The position numbers and the translations under genes were made by a program. This document shows positions 1,385 through 61,591 of a stretch of DNA of 64,000 nucleotides, piece by piece (the first letter of the stretch is position 1; every line of letters starts with the position of its first letter). The DNA is from Raja brachyura (Eukaryota), in the NCBI GenBank assembly GCA_963514005.1, contig OY740797.1, positions 43,586,001 to 43,650,000 of the forward strand, written 5' to 3'. The notes below the pieces were generated by a model. The model ran no database searches and had not been told where the DNA came from. It worked only from the letters and a program-made list of their open reading frames with translations.

Positions 1385-3000
1385 CCCTAGTTTGACTTTG
1401 CAAAATGCATCACCTGACTTATCTGAATTAAATTCCATTTGCCACTCTTCAGCCAACTTGCTCAGCTGATGAAGATCTCGCTGCAATTCATGATAACCAT
1501 CTTCACTGTCTATGATACTATCTATTTTAATATCTTCTACAAACGTACTAATCATGTCTTGTGCACTCATCTAAATCATTGATGTGGATGATAAACAGCA
1601 ATAGTCCCAGCATTGATCCCTGAGGCAGACCATTAGTCACAAGCCTCCAGTCCAAAGGACAACTTTCCACTATCGCCCCTGCTTCCTACCATGAAGGCAA
1701 TCGTGCATCCAGTTAGCTATCTCTCCTTGGCTCCCATGCAATCTAACCTGCAAGAGCAGCCTACCATGCAGAACATTTTCAAAGAGTTTGTTAAAGTCCA
1801 TATGGACAATGTGTATGGTATTGTCCTCATCAAACTTCTTGGACACGTCTAAAAAAACCTCAAAATAAATTCATGACATGATTTCCGTTGTACAAAACCC
1901 TGCTGACTATGCCTAAACAGCCAGTCTATCGAAAAGATGTTTTATCTTATCCCTCAGAATCCTCTCCAGTAACTTTTCTACCATAGATGTTATGCTCACT
2001 GGTCCATAGTTCCCTTGCTTTTCCTTAAAGCCCTTCTTAATAGAAGCACAACATTAGCCACCTTCCAGCGTTTCTGCACCTCATCAGAGTCTGATAAGGA
2101 TTTGTACATTTCACCCAGTTCTCCTGCAATTTCTTCTCTAGCCTTCCACGGTGTCCTCAGATATATCTGATTAGGTGCAGGAGATTTATCTACCTTCATA
2201 TTCCTTAAGACATTCAGTACCTCCCCAACTTTAATATGGAAAGTCCTCCATTGACAGTCTCAAGTTCCCCAGTCATCATGTCTTTCTCTGCAGTAAAAAC
2301 AGAGACAAAACATTAATTGAGGACCTCTCCAACACCCTGTGGCTCCACACAGGATAACCACTTTGGTGACTCGGGAGCCCTATTCACTCTCCAGTTACCC
2401 TTTTCCCCCTAATGTTCTTATAGAATCTCTTTGGATTCTCCTTAATCTCAGAGCTTTCTCATGTCCCTTTTTTGGTGTTCCTGATTTCCTTAATTATGCT
2501 CCTCAGTCTCCGAAATTCCTCCAGGGAAGTTTAGAGATACAGCATGGAAATGGGCCCTTCAGCCTACCGAGTGCACACTGACCAGCGATCCCTGTACACT
2601 AGCACTATCCAACACTCGGGACAATTTACACTTTTTACTGAAGCCAATTAACCTACAAACCTGGATGTCTTTGGACCCTCCCAAGAAGATCTTGCCCAAT
2701 ATAGAACTTTAACTTATGGATGGCCCCTGTCCTTATCCATAACTATTCTAAAGCTAATCAAATTGCAGCCCTTGGTTCCAAAAGACTCAACCACTGACAC
2801 CTCACTCCCTTGCTCTGCTCAATTTCCTAAAAGCTTGTCATGCCTTTCCCTCCACCTTATATTGCATGAGAAGACTTTCCTGAACACCTTTCACATATCC
2901 CCCTCCACCCCCTCATCCACCCCTCCAACTAGCCCCCTGGCAATATGGCAGTCCCACTCCATATTGGGAAAGTTAAAATCCTCTATAATGACAATCCTGG
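1385..3000 (-). mobile_element. Fragmented CR1 LINE ORF2 (RT region) with many deletions, interrupted by a SINE
   Basis: Minus frames give ISTFVEDIKIDSIIDSEDGYHELQRDLHQLSKLAEEWQMEFN (cf. ISKFADDTK...LQxDLDxLxxWAxxWQMxFN) and MKVDKSPAPNQIYLRTPWKAREEIA...WKVANVV. Confidence 0.85.
2530..2675 (-). mobile_element. HE1/V-SINE 3' portion
   Basis: ttagagatacagcatggaaa...gggacaatttaca...ccaattaacctacaaacc is shared with the full-length copies in this window. Confidence 0.75.
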
Positions 3001-3054
3001 AAAAATCCTGGCATCATGACTTAGCTCACAGTGTCATCTAAAACTGGTAGAAGC

Positions 3055-3235
3055 ATGGAGACGCAGCAGACAGCACATTCCTTGAACCTTGAGCAAGTAA
3101 CAGAGTGCTGGAGGAACTCCTCTGTGGAGGGGAATGGACAGATAGCGTTGTAGATCAGGACTGACTCAAAGCATTGTGTATCCGTTTCCCTCCACAGATG
3201 CTGCCTGACCCGTTGAGTTAATGCAGCACCTTTTG
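3055..3235. mobile_element. Degenerate Penelope-like terminal repeat foldback
   Basis: gtgctggaggaactc...ctgtggaggggaatggaca is mirrored by tccgtttccctccacagatgctgcctgacccgttgagtta. Confidence 0.6.
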
Positions 3236-5090
3236 CATCAGTAGATGAGGTTCTACCCCTATCACTGATCCCTCAAAGTGCGCTGCCCTTAATATTGTAA
3301 AACCAATAATGGTAGTTGTTCAAAGTGATCTAATAGAGAGACAGAGTTGCAATGGAGATATCGGAACGATCCACGTGCTCCACCTGTTGTCTACCGGCTC
3401 ATAATTGTAATGTCTGACATGTCAATGCAAATTCAATATGTGGCATTTCTGTTTGATTGCAACATATCTTGGTTTGTAAATATGTGACTCATACAAAAGG
3501 TTTGTGGTTATTGTACATGCAATGAAACCCCCAGGCTGGTGGTGGAGTTCCTTGATTATTATCTTCCACATAACTAGGCCTGGCAACAATTGTTGGTTGG
3601 AGGATATGTAACTTGTTTTAATATGAACATATTTGTGGTTAATACCTTTTTTCACTTTTTACTATCATATAATGTATTCATTTTAACTGGCACGAGAGCG
3701 AATATGTTTGAGTTTGCATTCAGAAGAAGATAGGATGCTTTACAACATTCTGATTTCTAGTGCTGCTATTCTGTCCCAATTAACATTACTATTTGAAATA
3801 ACAAAATGCTCATTTTGTATTGTTCCTGAACTATATTGCTAGAAAGAAGTGGCACTATGGAACGCATGGAAATCCCTTTCAGCTACATTTTTAATACAGG
3901 TGTTAACTTGTTAATTTTAAATACATTACTGGCTTGATTAAAATAGTAGATATGTTTGCATAATTATATTGCGCAAACCACTTGAGTAAAAGATGGTTTT
4001 TAAACTTTAATATGAATATTTTTTAATGTGGCCAGTGACTCAGTGGTGTGTGAACATTTATCTAATTGTGATCTTAGTGTGATTAAGCTCAACATCGCGT
4101 TTGAAAGAGAAACACAAAACTGGAAACGAAAGATTCTGGATAGATAGGTAGTGTGTATTACATCGAAACAGAAAATGCTTGCAACTCGTTCTAGTTCAGG
4201 CAGCATCTGTGGAAAGACAAATGCAATTAGTATTTCAGGTTGATGATGCAAGATGCTGCCCACATTTCTCTTTCCACGGAAGCGCTCTAATAATCCTCCC
4301 ATTTCCGACATTTTCTGCTGTTTTTTCTCTCAGATTTACAGTGTCTGCAGGTTTTTTTTTGATTCTCATTGACTGTGCATGGTAAATCAGCTGGTCGAGT
4401 TAATAGTAAAATAACAGAAGATCCGTCACGCGTTCAAGTAACAATAAAGAACCAGCTGATGCCTTGAACAGCAAGAGTTCTTCCCAAAAATAAACAGCCA
4501 TAAATGTTCATCAATGTAAAGGCTGACTAAGGAATTAAAAGGAAAGTTATACAAAATGCAAAAGCCCGCACAGAGCATGGTGACCAGGACAGAGAAATGG
4601 AGGCATTACAGATGGCACGGTCTACAAAAAGGGGAGCGTGAAGTGAATTGTGCAAAACTATTAACAAGATTTTTTTCCACTTACATATCAAAAGGAGGTT
4701 GATCAAGAGCAAGAAGGACCCCAGGAAAACTGTTAACAGTGACATTGTAAATGAAAATACTGACATATTGAAAAATTACTTTGTGTCGGTATTTACAATA
4801 GTAGATGAGGGTGGCGTGCCGGGTCTCTGAAGAAAGTCAATGTTGATGTGAATGGGGACTCAGCAGAATTTACATTAAGATTAAAGAATAGACTAGAAGT
4901 GTAAAGAATAGATGTCTCCATTCACTAGTTTAAAGGATGCTGGAGATAACTTTTCAGGTACTTGGACCAGCGTTATGTTAGACATTGCCTGATTTGAGAG
5001 CTGTTCTTTTTAATTGGATGATTGTACCTATCAGACTTCTATTTAAGTAAGTGGGAAAATAAAACCATGACCCAGCATTTGTTATCTGCA

Positions 5091-5185
5091 GTTTAGTTTA
5101 GGCTAGTTTAGAGATACAGTGCGGAAACAGGCCCTTCGGCCCACCGAGCCCGTGCAGATCAGTGACTCCCGCACACCAACACTAT

Positions 5186-5226
<41 letters not shown>

Positions 5227-5443
5227 GGGACAATTTACAATTTAACCAAAGCCAATTAAACTACAAACCTGTACATCTTTGTGGTGTGGGAGGAAACTGG
5301 AACACCTGGAGAAAACCCACGCAGGTCATGGGGAGAACGTACAAACTCCGTACAGACAGCACCCGTAGTCAGGATTGAACCGGGTCTCCGGTGCTGCAAG
5401 CGCTGTAAGGCAGCAACTCTACCACTGTGCCACCATGCTACCC
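5091..5443 (-). mobile_element. HE1-like tRNA-derived V-SINE with internal (CA)n
   Basis: The minus strand begins gggtagcatggtggcacagtggtagagttgctgcc (A-box head), then a B-box-like ggttcaatcc, the V-domain gggttttctccaggtgttccagtttcctcccacac and a (taaac)n tail. (CA)n runs at ~5189-5225. Confidence 0.85.
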
Positions 5444-5524
5444 TAAGCTATTAGAATCTGCAAAAAAAACTGTAGACTCAATGGGCCGAATGGCCTAATT
5501 CTTCTATGACTTATGAACATGAAA

Positions 5525-5616
5525 AAGCCGACTGCTGGAGGAACTCAGCAAGCCAGGCAGCATCAATGGACGGAATGGACAGATGATGTTTCGGATTGAG
5601 ACCCTTCTTCAGACTG
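5525..5616 (-). mobile_element. Penelope-like terminal repeat fragment
   Basis: tgctggaggaactcagc...ggcagcatc...gatgtttcggattgagacccttcttcagactg, with a degenerate hammerhead core on the minus strand. Confidence 0.65.
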
Positions 5617-5925
5617 TTTCAGGAAATGGATAAGTCTGCAGTAATGGTATTTCAGTGTTGGCAAACGTCATCCATTCTACATAAAAGAGATATGACAAAG
5701 TGCTTCTTGGACAGTATGTAGTGATTGAGAGCACTTTTGTGCAAGCACTTCCCAAACAAGCAGTCTCTAACACTACAAATGTTAAGTCAGCAGTTATGTG
5801 ACAAGTTTATCATCTACAAGTTCTTCTCTAAATTTCACATCCTGAGATGGAATTATCATCACTGCTTCTTCAATGCTGGGTCAAATCTACAAAATCCATG
5901 CATTGTAGTGCAGCAATTATTGTGC

Positions 5926-6169
5926 AAATAATCTGACTGCACAAAGTGCTTATCTTTAACAGTAAAAAGTGAGATTTGAGATAGTGACACAATTGTAATC
6001 TAAAGTTAATATAAGGTCTAAATATCCTTGCCTTGATAGCACCGGATGGGATGGAGCATTAAATGAGGCACTTCCTAATCAAGTGTTATCGTTACAGAAT
6101 AAATCTCCATTCATTTCTGCATCATCCACCTCCCCAACCAATACCTCCAATCCCCACTCCTTGAGAAGT
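5926..6169 (+). repeat. Copy 1 of a ~245-bp local direct duplication
   Basis: aaataatctgactgcacaaagtgcttatctttaacagtaaaaagtgagatttg...ctccttgagaagt recurs at 7212-7453. Confidence 0.95.
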
Positions 6170-6739
6170 GTCCTGCATTGGCTTGGTGCAGTTTACACAA
6201 TCACCAACTCATGGGTGGACATGAGGTGCTGTTCTTCCCAGCAAAGTCCACAATCTATCACTTGACATTTGCAGTCTGAGTTGACAGCTGGCTGCACTGG
6301 AGGGATATCATTTGGACTAGGTATTGAAAGAAGTCTGGCTCTTGAGTAAATACAGCTACACTAAGCAACATCTAGGGATGGAAAATAAGTGGTGGGACAG
6401 AATCCAGAAGTAGGAACAGCTGACCAGAGACATTCTTCCTATGAACAGCATTAAAGCATTGGCTTTCGTACTGTTTATACATTAACCCATGCACACTGTT
6501 ACAGTGGCCAAACCCTGAAACCTCCTTGTTGCCTGCTGTTGATTCACTGACGATGTTAGTAGACTCATGGACTGGCCTTCCACCTCAATTAGTTTTGAGC
6601 ACAACACTTTGAATGGATACTAATGAAAGAATGATCCAAAAGCAAAATATGTGAATGCTGTAAATCAAAAGTAAAACAGAAAATGCTGAAAATACTCAGC
6701 TTATCTGCGACACCTGTGAGGGGATTAAAAGTTATTTCA

Positions 6740-7050
6740 GGGACGGCACGGTGACATAGCGGGAGAGTTATTGCCTTACAGTGCCAGAGATCCAGGTTCG
6801 ATCCTGACTAAGGGTGCCGTCCATATGGAGTTTGGACTTTTCCCCATGACCTGTGTGGGTTTTCTCCAGGTGCTCTGGTTTCCTCCCACACTCCAATGAC
6901 GTACAAGTTTGTAGAATTAATTGGCCTTGGTTATAAAATATCGTAAAGTGTCCCTAGCGTGTATGATAGTGTTAAGTGTGTGCAGGGATCGCTGGCCGGC
7001 GTGGGCTGAAGGGCTCTGTTTCCGCACTGAATCACTAAACGAAACTAATA
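6740..7050 (+). mobile_element. HE1-like V-SINE
   Basis: Head gggacggcacggtgacatagcgggagag, B box ggttcgatcc, V-domain, and a ctaaacgaaactaa tail. Confidence 0.85.
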
Positions 7051-7211
7051 ATAAATCAATGACCTTTCATCTTTGGTGAAAATAGCCATCTAACTTCAGG
7101 GATTTTTTTATTAGTTGGAATACTTCCCACTGGTTGAAGAAATCTGTTCACTGCCCATGAATGTTCACATTATGATTGTTGGCCTCCTTCATCTGTAACT
7201 GTGGAAACTGA

Positions 7212-7453
7212 AAATAATTTGACTGCACAAAGTGCTTATCTTTAACAGTAAAAAGTGAGATTTGACATAGTGACGCAATTGTAATCTAAAGTTAATATAA
7301 GGTCCAAATATCCTTGGCTTGATAGCACCGGAACGGACGGAGAGTGAAATGAGGCACTTCCTAATCATGTGTTATTGTTACTGAATACAGCTCCATTCAC
7401 TTTTGCATCATCTACTGCTCCAACTACCTCCAATCGCCTCCTCCTTGAGAAGT
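7212..7453 (+). repeat. Copy 2 of a ~245-bp local direct duplication
   Basis: Aligns colinearly with 5926-6169. Confidence 0.95.
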
Positions 7454-7639
7454 TGCCTTAACCCTTGCTTGCAGAAGAATAGCCCTCACTGCAATTTTGT
7501 TGCCAGCACCAGTAAGTTCATGATTCAACTGTGCAGCTGACATTGTCACTGGTGCAGAACACACTAGGAGTCCACAGACATAGGCCCTTCGGAACACTGA
7601 TTCCACACTTACCATTAAGCACCCATTTACACTTTTTTT

Positions 7640-7926
7640 TAGTTTAGTTTGATTTAGAGATACAGTGCGGAAACACCTTTGACCCACCTTGTCCGCCCCG
7701 ACCACCGATCCCCGCGCACTAACGCTATCCTGCACACTAGGAATCATTTACAATTATACTGAACCCACAAACCTGTACGTCTTTGGAGTGTGGGAGGAAA
7801 CCAGTGCACCCGGAGAAAACCCTCGCAGGTCATGGGGAGAGCGTACAAACTCCCTACAGACAAGCAGCCGTGGTCAGGATTGAGCCCGGGTCTCTGGTGG
7901 TGTAGGGCAGCACCACCGTGCCGCAC
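7640..7926 (-). mobile_element. HE1-like V-SINE nested in an older SINE remnant
   Basis: Same structure as 5091-5443. The flanks ...catttacact / aatcttaccc... appear to continue an older SINE. Confidence 0.8.
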
Positions 7927-8209
7927 TAATCTTACCCTAATTTTATTCCCCTCACGTTTCCCTGTTATTTTTATTTGGATTTGATTCTGTTTATCTCAGA
8001 CGATAATTTTATTTAAACCAGTTTGGTGCTGATTGTTAACATTTGATGCTGCTGATGAAACACTAGAGTCACATTTTAGTTGAGGAGCACAGAACACAGT
8101 ATCAGGTTCCATGAGAAACTGCCACTGAAATAAATGTGTAATGGTTTCTTACAGTTAGCAGGTAGGTGAACTGTTAACCTGAACAGTCAAAGGACAGCTG
8201 TACAAATAA

Positions 8210-8575
8210 TCATGCCAATATTGTTACGCTTTTTGATGAGCTGCCAGTTCTAAACCATTGATCCTGGAATATGAGTTTGAATCTAACTGTAAAAGTTGGG
8301 GAATTTATATTCAAGTACTAAAATAAAATATATACATAAAAAAAAGTTAGACTCAGTATTGGTAGCTAAAAAAAACTGCTTGAGTGTTGTAAAAATCCCA
8401 TCTAGGTTATTCATGACCTTCAGAAAGGGAAATTTGCCATCTTTTTCTGATCAGGTCCTGTGCAACTTAAGAGCCGTCAATATGGTTGACTTAAATGCCT
8501 CCGTAGTTCAGGGGCTATTAGGTATGGATGATAAATGCCAACATTGCCAATGACATCCACTTGCATAAAAAAAAT
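8210..8575 (+). mobile_element. Old elasmobranch SINE (non-HE1) with CR1-like tail
   Basis: gttgtaaaaatcccatctaggttattcatgaccttcagaaagggaaatttgccatc...ggtatggatgataaatgcc resembles a common shark SINE. A related fragment lies at ~57110-57215. Confidence 0.5.
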
Positions 8576-8819
8576 CAATAAAGTTCTCAAGAAAATGCTG
8601 CTACTTAAAACTGAGAGCATCAGGAATTCAGGAAGTATTGAATTTGGTGAGGAAAAAACACATTGGGTTTTTGGTTGAAAAAATAACAGGGGAGGGGAGG
8701 GATTGAGTGAACTGTCCAGGTTGTGTTAATCCAAGTTCAGAAATTTAAACCCATTGCACTTTGGTTATGTTTGCAACAGCACTCATTACAAACAGGGATA
8801 GCACAGTGGAAGGTGAAGG

Positions 8820-8928
8820 TAGGCACAACACGCTGGAGCAACTCAGCAAGTCAGGCAGCATCTCTGGAGAAAAGGAAGAGGTAACGTTTCGGGTCGAGAC
8901 CCCCCCCCCCCCCCCCCCCCCTTCTTCA
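8820..8928 (-). mobile_element. Penelope-like terminal repeat with poly-C expansion
   Basis: gctggagcaactcagcaagtcaggcagcatctctggag...acgtttcgggtcgaga(C)n ttcttca. Confidence 0.75.
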
Positions 8929-11036
8929 CGTGAGCTGGCTATCTAAGGATGGTATGAAAATAGATGACAACAATGTGGAAAGGAATCTGCTGGTATATGT
9001 GGCACTTAGCATAGGGAATGGCTGTGGAGATTGCTTTGGTCAAACTGGGCGTTGAGAATTGGTGGTCCACGCTGAACAAAAAAAACAAATAGCTAAGCTA
9101 CAGTGGCGATGGAGAACAAGAGCCACGCGATTCATTGGTATCAAAGGTTAAAATAGGGGACATGCACAGTAAACTGAGGCTCTGTAACGTAATGAATATT
9201 ATTCAATTTGAGGAAACTCAGCATATTATTCCAGCCTTCCCAGAGCATTGTTCAGAGGTACTTGGGTCACTGGGTAATTTATTTTGTGGGCTTGCTGGGT
9301 CTTTGTCATGCAGACCCTCGAGGTGAAGAATCAAGGGGCCTATTCCCTTGCCACTTCAAAGTATCAAAGAGGCTCCCCACCACAATGAGTTTAGTTAAAT
9401 CCTGGCTGCTAGCAGGATCAGTGATGATGTGACGATTTTGTGACTAGCAAAGCTCCTGCTGCACGCCGGCCAAGCTGAAGAGGAGACGGCAATGCGATCC
9501 AGAAAGGGTGACCTTAGCTTGATACATATTTTGTTGGAGCATCCAGTTATATGCTGAAATAATTTTTGATAAAATAACTGAGAAATGCAGTCTGCTCCAC
9601 TGGTTAGTGTGTTTGTTTTTTGCCAGATATATCAAAATAATCAGAGAGGGCTGATAATTTGTTTGCAATAAATGAAAGCTGTTACATTTATTTCCCTCTT
9701 TTAAAAGTGTGGCCGATTGGCAACTTGTTTTCACCATCACAAAAGTGAGCGCAATTGAATGATTTCTGCCTGGGTTCTGGAACTGGTTGAAAAGCACTTG
9801 CTAACTGTGTTTGCACAAAGCTAATGAGGCCTTGTAGAACTGATCTGCCATTGATCGTTTTGATCAATTTCAGACCTGGTAAGATACAAATACCCATTTG
9901 ATTAGTGTCGTAGTAATCCTTGGGGCAATTCTGCTCAGTGCTCAGTAACATCTGTACGATAAAGAGAAGCCTGCTGACGGTGGAAATGTGTTTACAAAGA
10001 TGTCGTTTTCGTGAGTGCAAGCCTGTGATATCAACTTTTCCTAGAATGCTGCAAATGTGGTCAATGCACATTTATGAAGATTAGAAAACAAATTCTGTCC
10101 AATTTGTTGCACTTTTGATAAAGTATCAGAATCCATACAAAGACGTTCACATGATATTTCTCAGTCGCAGGACTTTTCTCTGAATGTGTTAGAGCAGGAG
10201 TGCTGAGATGCTAGCACTGATGTGTTCCAGGAATTAACTGCACAGTGTTCTTGCTTTATCCTCCTCATTCAGCAGTCCTTTGGCTTTGGAGGATTGCTGA
10301 TTTCCACTCTGTAGATTCTGAGGTAGCTAATGAAGCCGAGGTACCCTAGCAAGTGGTAGTAGCTGATGGGGCAGGTGTGTGGAGCTGATGAGACAGGCGG
10401 GTGGATAGTTTGTGAGGTGGAGCACTCCTTTCTTGATGTACGCAGGCAAGTGTGTGCTCCTGTTGTTCGGCCTTTTGGATTATAACACAATAAATGCTAT
10501 TTTATGCACATCCTTGAACCATTTTCTCTCTCTGCCCGGTAATGTCCCCCCAAGGCTGAGGTCAGATTCTGTTTCGGAAATCTATGTCAGGCAGGCAGGC
10601 AAACAAAATGGCCAGCCAAATGAACCCAACCACGAGTAACTTGTGCCTCAGCAACAGGAAAGAATGTTAACTTTGGATCTCTTGTCCTTTCACAAAATGT
10701 GTAAGATTTTCGCAGAGACAGCACTGGGGGGATTTTTCCAGACCTCGTGTTGCCTGCTGCCAGTAGTACAGGTGTCATAAGCATACAGGAAAGCTGGGGT
10801 CACTATTGCCCTGTAGAGCACAGGTTTTGGGCCAGGTCTAAGTCTTTAACAATCTCTTCCTCAATTGATTAAAGGATGCTCTTGCATTCTGTATCCTAAT
10901 GTAGGCTTCTGGAAATATTACTTTCTTAGGCAAAATTGCCAGGAAAGGTTAGTAGGAATTTGCTTCCAGCTATTTTCAGCCAAATCTGTGCGATTCCTCT
11001 TGAATATTGCATAAAGCTGGAGAATCTATGAACTGA

Positions 11037-11047
11037 AAGATGGCGGC
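11037..11047 (+). promoter_or_regulatory. YY1 consensus site
   Basis: AAGATGGCGGC matches the YY1 core exactly and has kept its CpG in CpG-poor DNA. This is motif evidence only. Confidence 0.3.
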
Positions 11048-11226
11048 CAACATGTGCCTGTTCATCTGACATGTGGACTGACAGCTAATAGAGATATTAG
11101 AAAGAATGACTTTGTCTTGATCGAATGGTGGTTGGATGGACATGAAGGCTTGCTGACGATCAAGGCAACTGCGTTCCAACTGCCCACTCTGCTATGAAGC
11201 CAGTGTTTCACTGTCCCAAAGGGTTA

Positions 11227-11433
11227 AGGGCCTGTCCCACGGTGATATTTTTTGGCGACTGCGACGTCATATCAGTGTCGCCAAAAGATTTCGAACATTT
11301 CAAAATCCATGGGCGACACTTGAAAAAGCACCGCGCGTCAAACGACATCACACCGCAAATTTCTCGGTGACCTGATCCATCAGTCAATGATGGCGGCAGT
11401 CGCCGAAAAAAATCGCCAAGTGGGACAAGCCCT
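11227..11433. mobile_element. PIF/Harbinger-type MITE
   Basis: TIRs AGGGCCTGTCCCAC / GTGGGACAAGCCCT, exact TTA target duplication (11224-11226, 11434-11436), and an internally palindromic body. Confidence 0.85.
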
Positions 11434-11546
11434 TTAGAATCTCGGTCTATGCCCACGTTGTGATTGCACCAGCATCCTTTGGCCTTTCCTAGTCTCAACT
11501 TCTGGATGGGTAATTCTCTTTCTCAAAGTAGGATTACATTCTATAT

Positions 11547-11666
11547 ATCTGAAAAAATGTCTTGACCCAAAACGTTACCCATTCCTTCTCTCCAGAGATG
11601 TTGCCTGTCCCACTGAGCTACTCCAGCTTTTTAAATCAACATCAGTAGTTCTTCCCTACACACTTA
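11547..11666 (+). mobile_element. Penelope-like terminal repeat fragment
   Basis: tctgaaaaaatgtcttgacccaaaacgttacccattccttctctccagagatg. Probable TSD ttacattctatat (11534-11546) / ttatattctatat (12949-12961), separated by the Helitron. Confidence 0.7.
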
Positions 11667-12062
11667 TCTATATATTACTAAAAGTCTGATCTTGACCACT
11701 TCCTGGTGTTCTGTAGAAAAACATTTTAGAAAAAACGCTGCCACTTACGGCTGTGATTTTTGGCCATCTTACTCAGAGTCCCCCTCCGCTGCGCAGGATA
11801 AGAGGATTTTTCCCATGGATAAAAAATAAAAGAGTTGATAGTGTTTAAAAAATGTTGAGGTTCTCTCTCCTGAAGGCAACGCCCCTTCCGGAGGGACTAT
11901 AAAACCCGGAAGTGTTGAGTGCCTCAGTTAGTCTCTGCAAGATGGGGGTGCGAGAGGGTCATGTCGCTCAGTCTGAGCTGTGAATAACACTGAACACATG
12001 TCTACTAAACTGTGAGTGGTTTTACTGACTTGTCAGTGCCCTTACTGTGGTTTGAAAATATA

Positions 12063-12209
12063 GTTTGGAAATGCTAAAGCTGTGTTGCCTTTGGTTTGGA
12101 AATGCTAAAGCTGTGTTGCCTTTGGTTTGGAAATGCTAAAGCTGTATTGCCTAATTAAAGTTGCCTTGTCTAATTAAAGTTGCCTTGCCTAATTAAAGTT
12201 GCCTTGCCT
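12063..12209 (+). repeat. Minisatellites inside the Helitron: 31-mer x3 then 19-mer x3
   Basis: gtttggaaatgctaaagctgtgttgcctttg at 12063/12094/12125; ctaattaaagttgccttg(t/c) at 12151/12170/12189. Confidence 0.95.
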
Positions 12210-12528
12210 TCTATATAATTAAAAGTCTAATCTTGACCACTTCTTGTTTGCGCTTTATATTGATTTTAGAAAAACGCTACCACGTACGGCTGTGTTTTTT
12301 GGCCATCTTACTCAGAGTCCCCCTCCTATCATCAGGTGCCAAGGAATTTTCCCATCGATGAAAAATAAGAGTTATTAGTGTTTAAAAAATGTTGAAATTC
12401 TCTCTCCTGTCAAGAAGGCCATGCCCCTTCTGGTGAGAAGGGGGGGAGGGACTATAAAACCCAGAAGTGTGGGCGTGGCACTGTCTTTGCAAGATGGAGG
12501 AGGGAGAGGTCATGACTCGCTGTCTTTA

Positions 12529-12650
12529 GTGGCCTTGCACCCTGCCTGAAATGGTATGAAACTGCACGTGAATTTGGTGGTCTTGCACCCTGTTTGAAGT
12601 GGTAAGAAACTGCACTTGAATTTGGTGGCCTTGCACCCTGCTTGAAATGG
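12529..12650 (+). repeat. 48-bp tandem repeat (~2.5 copies) inside the Helitron
   Basis: gtggccttgcaccctg..tgaa.tggta.gaaactgcac.tgaatttg at 12529, 12577 and 12625. Confidence 0.9.
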
Positions 12651-20392: not shown

Positions 20393-21699
20393 TCCTTTTA
20401 AGGTTAGACATGGAATGGGCACAGTGGGCCAAATGAGTGAAACTGTTGCAAACAAGCAGGGGATTCAGAATTTGAAAGCTGGGTTCTTCCCGGTGCCAGT
20501 GCTTTCAAGTTTATAAAAAAATTAGTCTAGTTGCAATTTAAATTTATCGTGCGGTCATGTGACTCAACCCCACTCCTTAACATGAGGTCTTCAGGTTGTC
20601 AGGTGATCAGCAAGATCCCGAGCAACTGAAATCAGAGACTAGTGGTGAATGCACGTTCCTGAAACCGATCTCTTCTTCATTGAAGAATTGACCTGGGATC
20701 GCCCTGGTTTAACCAGATTCTATTTGCATGCATGAGTAAGAACCAGTGCAGCAACAACAGGCACCAACCAAGTGCTTGGAAAAAAATCTGGTCCATTCCA
20801 TGTGTAGAAAGTATGGATAATGTGTATTATATTAAGACAGCATAAATCACAGTATAATATCTAGGGGGAAACCAATGTGGGGTTGCAGGCTACAGATTAA
20901 TAATGGGCTGTGAATACATATGTTGTTAAATGATTCCCATTCGATGTAATCAGCACACTCACATCCTAATGATGTAATCCAAACAAAATAGCTAAAGCGA
21001 TAGCTTCTTAATTAAAATAAATATAATGATCCCATTTGGCAAAGACTCTGGACTCTAGTGACGATCTTAAGAAAGTTGAGTTGATCGAAAGAAACTTAAA
21101 TAGATTTGCGCACAAATTTCTACCAAATGCGTGCATATGTTTTGCTCAAATGTTTTCCATCCTAGTTCTGCTTCAGATGCATCGGTTTAGGGAACGCTTC
21201 ACTCGGTGCCCGAGCATAGCTTGAAGCAATATCCCCAAATATAAATCAAGCTGGCTCTTCCACTGTGGAAACTACTGGAATTAAGCCTGATCCCAATGTC
21301 AATTTATATTTATGAATGCATGCTTCATTATACACTGATCAAGTTTAAGAATTATGGTTATTGTTCGCCTTCTTAAATGTGGTGACAAATTGCTATTCCC
21401 CCTTTGAGATGAACTAAATCAATACAGATGTGTTCCAACCCTCAGCCCTTCCAAACTTCATCTACACAGGGTTTCACATGGGGTGTACATTTCCAAATGG
21501 AAACATTAAAAATTGTGTGTTTGCTGGTCAAAAAAGACAACCTGCAACTATATCATTTGTAGGTTCAGAATGATATTAAAGTGCAGTCAACCCTTGTTTT
21601 GATGGATCTCTCTATAATGGATTTTGGTTATAGTGGATGGAATTACTGATAGCTGCTGATGCCAGCACTGGCTTGCACTTTCCTACCCCGGTCGCTTAC

Positions 21700-21977
21700 A
21701 GCCCCGACTGCCGATGCCACCCTCGGCTCACAAGGTGGAACCGGCGAATCCTTCTTCACCACCTGCTGCACCGTCCGGTTGATGGCTGTTGTTGACGGCT
21801 CACGTTGTAACCCCTGGCCGGCAGCACTTTCTTCAGGTTGCCGCCACGGACAGGACACGCTCGGTCACCGTGCGACTCTCTCCCCGCTCACCAGCTGCCG
21901 CTTCTTCCTGTTGGCCATCGCTTTGTCCACTCGGCCTCCTCCTCCTCCTCCTCTTCCTGCCCAGTGGTCACCGACAT
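21700..21977 (-). pseudogene. Degenerate histone H1-like sequence (left arm)
   Basis: With frameshifts it reads MSVTTGQEEEEEEEA / VDKAMANRKKRQLVSGE / SRTVTERVLSVAA / LKKVLPARGYNVSR / AINRTVQQVVKKDS. Compare the H1 globular domain [30 protein letters not shown]. Confidence 0.6.
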
Positions 21978-21992
21978 ACTCCGCCTTGGAAC

Positions 21993-22275
21993 ATGTCGGT
22001 GGCTGCGGTGGAGAAGGACGAGGAGGGACTAGAGGAGTGGACAAAGCGATGGGAGAAGAGGAAGAGGAGGCAGCGGTGGAGGGGGTAGCAGACAAAGCTG
22101 CGGCCGACAGAGAGAAACAGCAGCTGGTGAGAGGGGAGGGAGCCCCATGGTGACCGAGCGTGTCCTGTCGAAAACACTGTCAGCCTGGGGCTACAACGTG
22201 ATCTGCTTCAACTGGACAGTGAGGGAGCTGATGAAGCAAGGCTCGCTGGTGCAGACCAGCGGCATTGATGCCTAG
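21993..22275 (+). pseudogene. Degenerate histone H1-like sequence (right arm)
   Basis: Starts ATG TCG GTG with an acidic N-terminus. 22147-22275 reads MVTERVLSKTLSAWGYNVICFNWTVRELMKQGSLVQTSGIDA*. GYNV and GSLVQTSG match H1 GYDV and GTLVQTKG. Confidence 0.65.
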
Positions 22276-22479
22276 TGAAAGGTGAAAGGACACAAAGTGC
22301 TGGAGAACCGCCATGCTATGATCAATACATTTCTCCTCATCTCGCTCTTCAAATCAAATGCTTATTTTGAGAATGTGTCTCTTGGTTCTAGATACCCAGC
22401 CAGGGAAAACATCATCCCTACATCTATTATTCCAAACTTGAAAGGACTTAGCATGTTTCATTGAGATCACATCTTATCT

Positions 22480-40959: not shown

Positions 40960-41072
40960 AATCACAAAATGCTGGAGTAACTCCGCGGGGCAGGCAGCAT
41001 CTCTGCATCCCACTCCTCCTCTCCAGAGATGCTGCCCGTCCCGCTGAGTTACTCCAGCATTTCGTGTCTACA
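40960..41072. mobile_element. Penelope-derived foldback
   Basis: aaatgctggagtaactccgcggggcaggcagcatctctg pairs with cagagatgctgcccgtcccgctgagttactccagcattt. Confidence 0.8.
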
Positions 41073-43427: not shown

Positions 43428-45465
43428 TGAGTATTGGGTGTTGGATCTGAAACCATTCTGTTTTGTCTCTGCGTTCAGAAAGAAAATAACAAACACCTAA
43501 AGGAAAGCAATGATGGGAGAACAAATGAGTTCTAGAATTAAATGAGCCGTAGCTTTGCAGAACAGTGAGGAAAACCTTGTTTAGAAACAGAAGAGCTGCA
43601 ATATTTTCATCATCATCTTGGCTTTTAATATATGAGAAAAGGAACGTAATTAAAAAACGCACAATGCCATGGTTGTATTATTAATTTTTTTAAATCATAC
43701 TGCCTATGATGCTGCATTCATCTATGTGGTGTATGGTACAACTTTATAAATGCAAACTTATCACTGCAAAAGATGCCACAAAGGGATTCCATTGTAATCA
43801 GTAAAGGTGTCTGGGCATTAATATAGATGCATTCTGTTGAAAAAGAGTGCTTTAATGAATTAGAGTCGTAATGGAGTGGATTGCATTATCACAATAAATT
43901 ATCACCATAAATTAACCACATCGCTGCAGTTTTAGCCGAATGTCTGAAAAAAATCTACGATTTTAAAAGACGCTAAAGATAACTTATTTTAATAGCTTAC
44001 TTTAGTCACTAGTTAAAGAAAGTAAATTGACTGCAATAATTATTTGTGCAAGTGTTTTAGGAGGCTATGTAACTTTGCTTTAGTAGAAATGTAACACTAT
44101 TAATCTATCATTAATCTGGTGCTCTTGATAATTTTTTTTAACATTTTCTATTGAATACTCAGATTCTTTTTTGTGTCAACCATCTTGCTGCACCGCAGTA
44201 CCAAAGGAACAAATGCGGTCAGATCATCGAGTCAGTACCGACTATGTTGTCAGGATAGATACCACAATCTATCACCATAAAAAAACATTGACAATATTTA
44301 GCCCTTGAGAAAACACCAGTGTTTTATTTCACATTTTCTCAAAGACTAGCATGTGATTCAGTGGTACCTACTGACACTGTTCAAACTCCAGCTCTGCATG
44401 GCACTGACAGTACAATGGGGAATAAAATACTAGATCTGTCAGATAGCCCTGCACTACGGCACTCTGTGGTTTAACAATACAGCCACTTGACCTATACACA
44501 GAAGTTTTAATGGTTCATTTCTAATGGATTAGTCTTTTTAGCATTTGGCTCTGTTTCAAAAGTCAGGCGATCAGTCTAAATATCTCGCCAGAATAAACGG
44601 TTGATTGAATATCTACAGCCGTGGACAGTCTAAGGTGAGAGCGGAGCAATTCTTTTTGTCCCGTACACAGGGTTTGATGTTACAGATCGCAAGTTCTCAT
44701 TGGAACTCAGCAACATAATTTTCTAATAAAAACCAGAGCATTGCCAACAGAGGGTCTTTATGATCATCCCTGACTACAGGAGAGCAGGCTCCAATACTGC
44801 ACTCAATATTGTAATGAAACCACCAGCACATACATACACCCTTGAGGCTTAATTCGAGGGTGAATCTACATTTTATGAATTTACATATGCCATCTTTTTG
44901 CATTCCCTGGACAAATAACACAAAATGAAATTGGAAATGTATGAACGAGTCAAAAAACAAATTACACATATTTAAATTGATTTCTATTTTTCCCCTTGTT
45001 GATAACTATTTATGCTTCTTTCCACCCACCACACACCTTTCTCCCCCCATCATCCCATATAAACAAGCTATTATCCCACATAAATGAGGGATCAAAGTGA
45101 ATTATTTGATCAGGGTACCACAGAGAAAAATAAATATAGATGGGGTATTTTTATAACTTTATCTGGTTTGGATATTAAGCAGCATGTTAAGGATGCAACT
45201 CCCAACATTCATTAGCTTGTAGCCATACTCTGATGATTATTTTACAGACGTTGCTATAATAATGAAGCTTCATTAGAAATTTGAATACAGTAATTGCATT
45301 AATTAGTTAATAGATGCTCAATGTGTTTAATATATATGAACTTCTTTGTCAAAAATAAATTGATAATCACTGTACAGAAACACGTGAACTGCTTAGTATC
45401 TTTTGTGTGAGGTTGCAGAGACTTCTTTATCACTGATAGTGTTTGTCGCTTTAACAAAGGAAGTG

Positions 45466-45676
45466 AAGATAGACACAAAATGCTGGAGTAACTTAGCAGG
45501 TCAGGCAGCATCTCTGGAGAAAAGGAATAGGTGACGTTTCGGGTCGAGATCCTTCTCAGTCGCCACCTGAAATGTCACCTATTTTTTCCAGAATGCTGCC
45601 TGACCCGTTGAGTTACTCCAGCATTTTGTGTCTATCTCCATTGCAAACCAGTATCTGCAGCTCTTTCTTACACACT
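45466..45676. mobile_element. Penelope-derived foldback with ~15-bp TSD
   Basis: gatagacacaaaatgctggagtaact...aataggtgac / gtcacctatt...agttactccagcattttgtgtctatc. Flanks ttaacaaaggaagtg (45451-45465) / ttaacaaagtaagtg (45682-45696). Confidence 0.85.
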
Positions 45677-60969: not shown

Positions 60970-61182
60970 TGTAGACCGGAACTGCAGATGCTTGTTTAAA
61001 CCGAAGATAGACACCAAAAGCTGGAGTACCTCAGCGGGTCAGACAGCATCTCTGGAGAAAAGGAATAGGCGATGTTTGGTTTCAGAAGGGTCTGAAGAAG
61101 GGTCTCAACCCGAAACGTCACCTATTCCTTTTCTCCAGAGATGCTGCCCGATCCGCTGGGTTACTCTGACTTTTTGTGTCTA
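60970..61182. mobile_element. Penelope-derived foldback with sense-strand hammerhead core
   Basis: Inverted arms gcatctctggagaaaaggaatagg / cctattccttttctccagagatgc; core at 61088-61123; imperfect TSD gcttcctgagctgagtggtgt / gcttcatgagctgaattggtgt. Confidence 0.82.
61088..61123 (+). ncRNA. Candidate minimal type I hammerhead ribozyme
   Basis: GGGT-CTGAAGA-a-GGGT ctca ACCC-GAAAC-GTC-ACCT: core boxes intact, 4-bp stem II, 4-bp stem I (one G.U), and a palindromic ACGT stem III. Activity is untested. Confidence 0.5.
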
Positions 61183-61359
61183 GCTTCATGAGCTGAATTG
61201 GTGTGGAAATGTAATCTCAGTACCTCAATGCCATTCCCATGAGGGGACAGTGAAGGGTCTTTTGTAGAAAAAGGGAAAACATGTTTCTAACGCATAAAGA
61301 AATATGTGATATATTTTGCGTGATTTTAAATACAATTTTTTTTCCTCTCGCATCCTTAG

Positions 61360-61591
61360 CACTTGCAGCAGCACGACAACACGGTGGAGACCGAGGCGTG
61401 TTACTACCATTGTTCACTGTGCAGCTACTCGACCAAGGCAAAACTTAACCTGATCCAGCACGTACGCTCCATGAAACACCAACGCAGCGAGAGCCTACGC
61501 AAACTACAGCGGCTGCAGAAGGGTTTGCCAGAGGACGATGATGACCTTGGGCAGATCTTCACCATTCGCAAGTGTCCTGCTGCTGAGACTG
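61360..61591 (+). CDS. ZFHX3: Internal coding exon of zinc finger homeobox protein 3 (ATBF1), containing one C2H2/U1-like zinc finger
   Basis: Translates to [77 protein letters not shown]. This is close to the vertebrate ZFHX3 sequence as I recall it ([36 protein letters not shown]) and unlike ZFHX4. Acceptor is a polypyrimidine tract plus ttag|CAC (AG 61358-61359); donor is G|gtaagt (61592). Length 232 bp, phase 0 in and phase 1 out. Confidence 0.95.

Follow-up and report, generated by a model that had tools for sequence, protein, structure and literature searches.

The window analyzed here is the 64-kb stretch C17:43,586,001–43,650,000 of a 2.7-Gb skate genome. Zinc-finger exons of a ZFHX3-like gene were located upstream at C17:43.515–43.536 Mb, 50–71 kb before the window start, and the next such exon was found at window position 61360. 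These flanking exons are all on the + strand, which bears out the placement, in a preliminary description of this DNA, of the foldback described below within an intron of this gene. The gap of ~111 kb between the flanking zinc-finger exons was taken as the host intron; small exons without zinc fingers would escape the scan. The host is probably ZFHX3 rather than ZFHX4, based in part on PF24056. The features are as follows.

21582–21607, + strand: target-site TA (TG in the assembly) and left terminal inverted repeat of Tigger/pogo type (position weight matrix score 30.7 at 21582)
21608–21734, + strand: left subterminal region, common with an H1-free sister subfamily (family positions 1–139, 85% between subfamilies)
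21735–21985, − strand: arm A, inverted histone H1 fragment comprising part of the N-tail and the globular domain, frameshifted (blastn; nhmmer 204 bits with a family arm profile that itself includes the window copy)
21985–22275, + strand: arm B, sense H1 fragment with TAG after the TSG motif and without the C-terminal tail (tblastn, blastn, H1 profile)
22276–22305, + strand: junction with the opening bases of an inverted Penelope-like 3' end piece native to the element (family homology ends at 22305; the piece resembles the 3' side of GIY-YIG elements)
61360–61591 (approximate bounds), + strand: next zinc-finger exon of the ZFHX3-like host, given for context

The foldback had originally been bounded at 21700 and 22275, and the feature as a whole reaches from the terminal inverted repeat at 21582 to 22305. 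The weight matrix was built from natural family ends, and 21582 was its sole match in the window at a threshold of 16; G21583 is A in 4/4 related sequencing runs. Homology between the window copy and the family has its left limit at ~21577 and its right limit at 22305, inside the inverted Penelope-like piece, so that this copy is 3'-truncated and has the left terminal repeat only. No right terminal repeat was detected in the window or in the 50 kb downstream. The insertion was found at the same, orthologous place in sequencing runs of six other organisms (B–G), which answers the question of its presence in related species.

The inverted arms are nested around 21985, with lengths of 79 nt (84% identity), 50 nt, 38 nt and 39 nt. 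All three pairings quoted in the preliminary description were found where it had placed them: 21849–21869 pairs perfectly with 22149–22169 over 21 bp, the longest perfect duplex in the foldback, the second pair lies inside the 50-nt arm (74% identity) and the third carries one mismatch. The CAT at 21975–21977 and the ATG at 21993–21995 are likewise both present. Arm-to-arm alignment gave 219/282 paired positions with large gaps, and this alignment also takes in non-homologous ends. The predicted fold of 21700–22275, a calculation that had been recommended, is a stable long duplex of the kind expected of a hairpin RNA, with an energy of −326.9 kcal/mol against −235.3 ± 6.4 for shuffled sequences (z = −14.2; 0/100 shuffles equally stable).

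Histone H1 ancestry of the arms

A total of 41 Linker_histone matches were found in the genome and only three of these, L047, L048 and L050, which form one cluster on contig 32, gave a good DNA match to the arms. Arm A matched L047/L048 at 83% over 100 nt (blastn, E 1.5e-22), and arm B matched L048 by tblastn (E 3.7e-6) and by blastn at 70% over 113 nt. The family consensus arms were closer to these genes, with 87–88% identity over 125–135 nt to L047/L048, 81% to L050 and 75% to L037. The candidate parents are intact PF00538 genes, and the search for an intact parent in the source genome yielded these candidates. The H1 origin of both arms and the head-to-head, inverted duplication of an H1 fragment, both proposed from the letters of the window, were confirmed. 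As judged by these alignments the element carries internal, non-transposon sequence with an identifiable parent, as a Pack-TIR does, and the donor appears to be one of several paralogues.

Searches with protein models were less productive. Although tblastn with L048 gave the match to arm B reported above, a Pfam search of three single arm frames returned 0 families and no Linker_histone match. With our own H1 profile arm B scored 10.8 bits and arm A gave nothing above 8 bits. By DNA similarity the arms are assigned to an H1 pseudogene fragment, in which no open frame matched Linker_histone.

The nearest database relatives of L047, L048 and L050 are skate 'H1.1-like' proteins. Their C-terminal tails contain 29–39 Arg, whereas three ordinary H1s from this genome have 3–5, a difference suggestive of a protamine-like, sperm-type H1 variant. 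Intact Arg-rich variants with protamine-like tails comprise L047, L048 and L050 (C32:35.2–35.65 Mb) and also L035, L038 and L037; their database matches carry no informative names, and they are candidate skate sperm nuclear basic proteins.

The parent had been predicted to be an unusual H1, and this held insofar as the closest parents are the Arg-rich genes, but the acidic N-terminus on which the prediction was based arises when a Gly-rich tail is read out of frame. In an alignment with L048, the beginning of the arm falls on the internal FPGDSGGRGGGG stretch of the parent; the family frame carrying PTVTERVLSVAA encodes a Gly-rich tail like that of the parent, and the ATG and poly-Glu belong to the neighbouring frame. 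The ATGs are outside the H1 frame, and the reading of both arms as opening with an ATG start was abandoned. The H1 motifs are present, with GYNV seen in each arm, LKKVL in arm A and GSLVQTSG in arm B, but none of them is in the ATG frame. The arms had also been described as having different internal deletions, whereas the main deletion, a loss of the same ~11 codons of the globular domain accompanied by a frame change, is common to both arms and family-wide. Arm B has a stop directly after TSGIGA. The shared loss, the frame change and this stop together indicate that the cargo was never coding in its present form, and the master element would already have been frameshifted and non-coding.

Two further H1 sequences were considered and rejected. 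The acidic-tailed H1 gene L045 has a GAG run alone in common with the arms and was discarded as a parent. L155 (C32:33.83 Mb) is a separate, broken H1 of the Arg-rich type which has neither the family deletion nor terminal repeats; it was classed as an H1 pseudogene and not as a family member.

The dispersed family and its mobilization

With the right arm as query 781 first-look candidates were obtained, and the 40 that were scored gave 56 matches of 67–86% identity on many contigs. Both arms were present head to head in 17/30 of the first loci. The preliminary description had viewed the foldback as a single relic peculiar to this intron and had named a high-copy foldback transposon as the finding that would overturn this view; it is such a dispersed family that was found, and the duplication would have happened once, in the transposon master.

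Full copies have a 26-bp inverted repeat at each end, starting TA-CAGT (self inverted match of 27 nt, 93%). Among all fetched loci, 53 elements had both ends (380–1300 nt apart), and these consisted of 24 with two arms (711–1290 nt), 4 with one arm, 23 with none and 2 unclassed. TA was found at 41/53 left ends and 35/53 right ends, and at 56/69 ends of loci found by their arms. These counts point to TA target-site duplication at family ends; as the window copy has no right end, its own duplication cannot be closed. Copies have different, unrelated flanks and lie far from the parent, on more than 20 contigs, as for a multicopy Pack-TIR.

The H1-free sister subfamily and the H1-bearing copies have 139 nt in common at the start (85%) and 230 nt at the end (92%), and this terminal stretch includes part of the 3' end of a Penelope-like retroelement of GIY-YIG type. 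In the H1 subfamily a further, inverted copy of this piece, 32 nt long, directly follows arm B. The piece matched 3/4 GIY-YIG-type loci tested, and PF01541 was detected in 2/3 frames, one over the cut-off, in agreement with its being a GIY-YIG retroelement 3' end. In Rfam searches of three family loci no match exceeded a gathering score; those obtained were to hairpin-like miRNAs of a generic kind, and no hammerhead was found. The Penelope-like repeat is very common in this genome (80,394 candidates for the endonuclease region), and short palindromes of Penelope-like 3' ends were observed in the window at 1181–1323, 40963–41066, 45464–45640 and 61003–61187. Sister elements L064, L066, L078, L084 and L088 (~450–650 nt) contain a different GC-rich cargo, possibly another captured gene piece.

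The window foldback is very probably the cargo of a ~1-kb non-autonomous DNA transposon of Tigger/pogo type. By its structure the element belongs among the gene-capturing Pack-TIRs, of which it is an uncommon variant, with a high copy number and a foldback as cargo. We also considered that the H1 arms had spread as processed pseudogenes or by means of the Penelope-like retroelement, the terminal repeats being incidental. The Penelope-like piece does follow arm B directly, and 13 of the first 30 loci had no end motif within 1.5 kb. However, the retroelement piece is internal, occupies the same place in both subfamilies and is bounded by the same ends, the breakpoints are common to the copies, and there is neither a poly(A) nor the C-terminal tail. 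Retro-spread is largely refuted by the 24 full-length elements that have two arms as well as both ends, and we regard it as extremely improbable.

Family size was estimated from the ends. A 24-nt end motif, with CpG decay allowed, had 301 exact matches, compared with 0 for the reversed control. Since 5/69 ends in arm-found loci matched this motif exactly, the 301 matches would correspond to ~4,150 ends (1,900–12,600). When 60 of the first 63 places listed by their ends were fetched, an H1 arm was found in 15 and both arms in 8; the 3 left out were already known arm carriers, which brings the count to 18/63 with an H1 arm. The H1 subfamily thus represents about a quarter of sampled ends. At one or two ends per element, the number of H1-bearing copies is roughly estimated to lie between several hundred and about a thousand.

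A candidate source of transposase was identified in L132 (C1:47.653–47.656 Mb), in which a 550-aa open reading frame (627–2508) has CENP-B_N, HTH_Tnp_Tc5 and DDE_1 domains. The left end of the family matched DNA upstream of this frame (BLAST, best E 2e-9) and was also found in L191 and in a broken relative, L204. The right end was found in L202 and L208 (E to 1e-12), beside transposase fragments, and L202 has both family ends around such a fragment; the ends are therefore shared with transposases of the DDE_1/CENP-B type. Although L132 was found by BLAST, a scan of the 30 best DDE_1 loci with the end motif (threshold 11) passed 0/30, and the transposase gave no tblastn match in 60 loci that had been picked by their ends. 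We were unable to find in the genome a complete autonomous element with both matching ends. L132, in which Val takes the place of the first catalytic Asp and which has no right end within 1.5 kb, is not a catalytically complete partner; the lack of an intact partner is expected for an extinct family. The nearest named relatives of L132 are crustacean TIGD7-like proteins, and the Tigger-type assignment is based on ends, domains and nearest relatives, membership of the Tigger clade proper being putative. From the shared ends and domains, it is likely that the family was spread by a Tigger transposase in trans.

Two other properties of L132 were recorded. The protein is 98% identical to an unnamed 12-member cluster, and its relatives in the genome are broken; a single open frame with Val in place of the catalytic Asp among broken relatives makes domestication possible. 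Its identity of 60–68% to lobster and amphipod proteins may hint at horizontal transfer.

Decay of the arms and possible RNA functions

Arms were compared over the core that they have in common. Of 119 aligned hits, 22 unclassed and 7 short ones were dropped, which left 90 arms, 41 of type A and 49 of type B. Mean identity was 0.732 for A–A, 0.747 for B–B and 0.727 for A–B between copies, and was again 0.727 for A–B within the same copy (36 pairs). The window copy, at 0.768, is one s.d. above the family mean. Only 9/298 columns distinguish A from B, and each of them lies either at the centre or at an outer end, indicating that the master arms were nearly identical. The arm tree is star-like and 0/27 cherries join two arms of one locus. 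Copies are about 16% from the family majority, which we use as a proxy for age, with divergence of 0.34 at CpG sites and 0.12–0.135 at others; such heavy CpG loss is the pattern typical of methylated neutral DNA. One locus departs from this picture: in L002 (1399–1959) identity between the two arms is 88%, whereas the family averages 73% (~3.7 s.d.), which suggests later gene conversion between arms, so that arm homogenization can occur, and this counts against our main reading.

The preliminary description had offered two outcomes for the window copy, neutral decay and a hairpin-RNA role against the parent gene. In the latter case this intronic copy would have been exapted to produce a hairpin RNA, whether endo-siRNA or ADAR substrate, that regulates the parent H1 genes or ZFHX3 processing. 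The strong predicted fold, the position in a sense-strand intron and an insertion common to seven organisms are in its favour, as is the non-CpG divergence of arm B, which is 0.07 compared with a family mean of 0.116 in a comparison set partly picked by likeness to arm B. However, arm identity is ordinary for the family, as is fold energy per base (rank 11 of 33 family copies), and the window contains ~10 further local inverted repeats. G.U-compatible mismatches on the plus and minus strands numbered 18 and 20 in the window and 619 and 663 in the family, so the absence of G.U bias noted previously extends family-wide, and neither compensatory nor G.U-biased change was found.

Substitution in the arms was also similar to that in the flanks. 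The orthologous contigs differed by 1–2% (B, C, D) or 3–5% (E, F, G), and among the differences listed, arm and flank counts in two runs were 5/344 and 15/559 (Fisher, p 0.25) and 5/346 and 19/1174 (p 1.0), a comparison of low power with ~350 arm bases per run. The perfect duplex does not exceed 21 bp. The longest exact match to the parent gene is 15 nt for the window copy and 11–18 nt, with one of 28 nt, for 24 full copies, so that silencing of the parent H1 by family copies today would be unlikely. We consider exaptation very unlikely. Decay of the arms looks neutral by these comparisons, as the preliminary description had allowed, and the window copy is likely to be inert today and without a function of its own; the hairpin-RNA role was not supported.

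An earlier role is a separate matter. During expansion the hairpins of the family could have given rise to small RNAs directed at the Arg-rich H1 genes, in a transposon–host conflict which is now fossil. In this case a near-perfect 2 x 290-bp hairpin of a probably sperm-type H1, in hundreds of copies, would have constituted a transposon-borne RNAi source directed at a germline chromatin gene. The near-identical master arms, their 87–88% likeness to L047/L048, the protamine-like tails of these parents and the share of the H1 subfamily among sampled ends are all compatible with this. Against it, a promoter, hairpin transcripts and small RNAs are putative, the parents are intact and their germline role is deduced from the Arg-rich tails, and the cargo was not required for spread, in which the H1-free sister subfamily was at least equally successful. 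We judge both the conflict and the RNAi source that it implies to be improbable. If true, this would be a vertebrate case of gene-capture conflict, and the parent H1 cluster and the small RNAs of the testis should still bear its trace.

Proposed history and relation to known systems

The anatomy, dispersion, parentage and decay pattern of the family were observed, and from its layout we infer the mechanism of capture. An older Tigger-derived element which already contained the Penelope-like piece would have suffered a break, and repair with template switching to an H1 gene would have folded back once in H1 and once in the Penelope-like piece. The resulting order would be end, H1 antisense, H1 sense, retroelement piece antisense, retroelement piece sense, end. 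The junctions at which capture would have taken place were located, though their age would obscure any microhomology. This master, with near-identical arms and already non-coding, may then have been amplified in one burst by transposase in trans before the split of the sampled skate lineages. One copy would have entered the ZFHX3-like intron before the split and lost its right end later, and copies would have been methylated and then decayed. Intronic inverted repeats generally form imperfect duplexes in pre-mRNA, and in ZFHX3-like pre-mRNA the window copy would do the same, perhaps being edited, but without a selected function.

These results remove a false lead, that of a unique H1 relic with a regulatory role, and document in a vertebrate a high-copy gene-capturing DNA transposon, a class reported to be rare in animals. 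They also have a practical consequence for annotation, as the spurious 'histone H1-like' hits that the H1-bearing element would produce in skate genomes number dozens to hundreds; ~94/116 tblastn H1 matches were dispersed fragments and 3/3 of those checked were family members. The family further provides a dated natural experiment on the fate of a long palindrome, and of the donor gene, after amplification of a hairpin.

Drosophila hairpin RNAs acting against protamine-related drivers are reportedly produced from single transcribed loci with demonstrated siRNA output. These loci resemble the skate element in being inverted duplicates of a fragment of a sperm-chromatin-type gene, whereas the skate copies are scattered through the genome as the cargo of a transposon, and their pairing shows no sign of having been kept. 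The literature searched yielded no vertebrate family with hundreds of copies and a mirrored linker-histone fragment as cargo, nor a description of this family or of these Arg-rich H1 variants, and the passages found of the Squalomix preprint make no mention of the family. The family may already have an entry in a repeat library such as Repbase or Dfam.

Tigger (pogo) elements and their MITEs are characterized by a TA duplication, TIRs of 8–33 bp and a single transposase of 300–685 aa, and their hosts include Chondrichthyes (PMC9219625). The skate element is alike in its TA ends and in a TIR length within this range, but its interior is host and retroelement DNA. Genes are known to be captured by TIR elements in both plants and animals. 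In a survey of animal Pack-TIRs limited to young cases, only four were multicopy (1.4%), with an example in three copies (Tan et al. 2021, PMC8277862). The skate element has in common with these a TIR DNA transposon with captured host sequence, GC-rich cargo and copies far from the parent, and the template-switch-then-transpose model given there for multicopy cases fits its layout. Unlike the surveyed elements as described there, it is estimated at hundreds of copies, is old (~16% from the family majority) and has an inverted duplicate as cargo. The closest parallel in cargo is the hAT-borne histone H3 of Dothideomycete fungi, for which hundreds of inactive copies with an intact parent were described (Dhillon et al. 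2019, PMC6710886). In both cases a histone gene was carried in a cut-and-paste transposon and amplified to hundreds while the parent remained intact. The fungal case involves a hAT element, the core histone H3 and inactivation by RIP, whereas the skate case is in a vertebrate and combines Tigger/pogo ends, no internal transposase, a mirrored linker-histone fragment and CpG decay.
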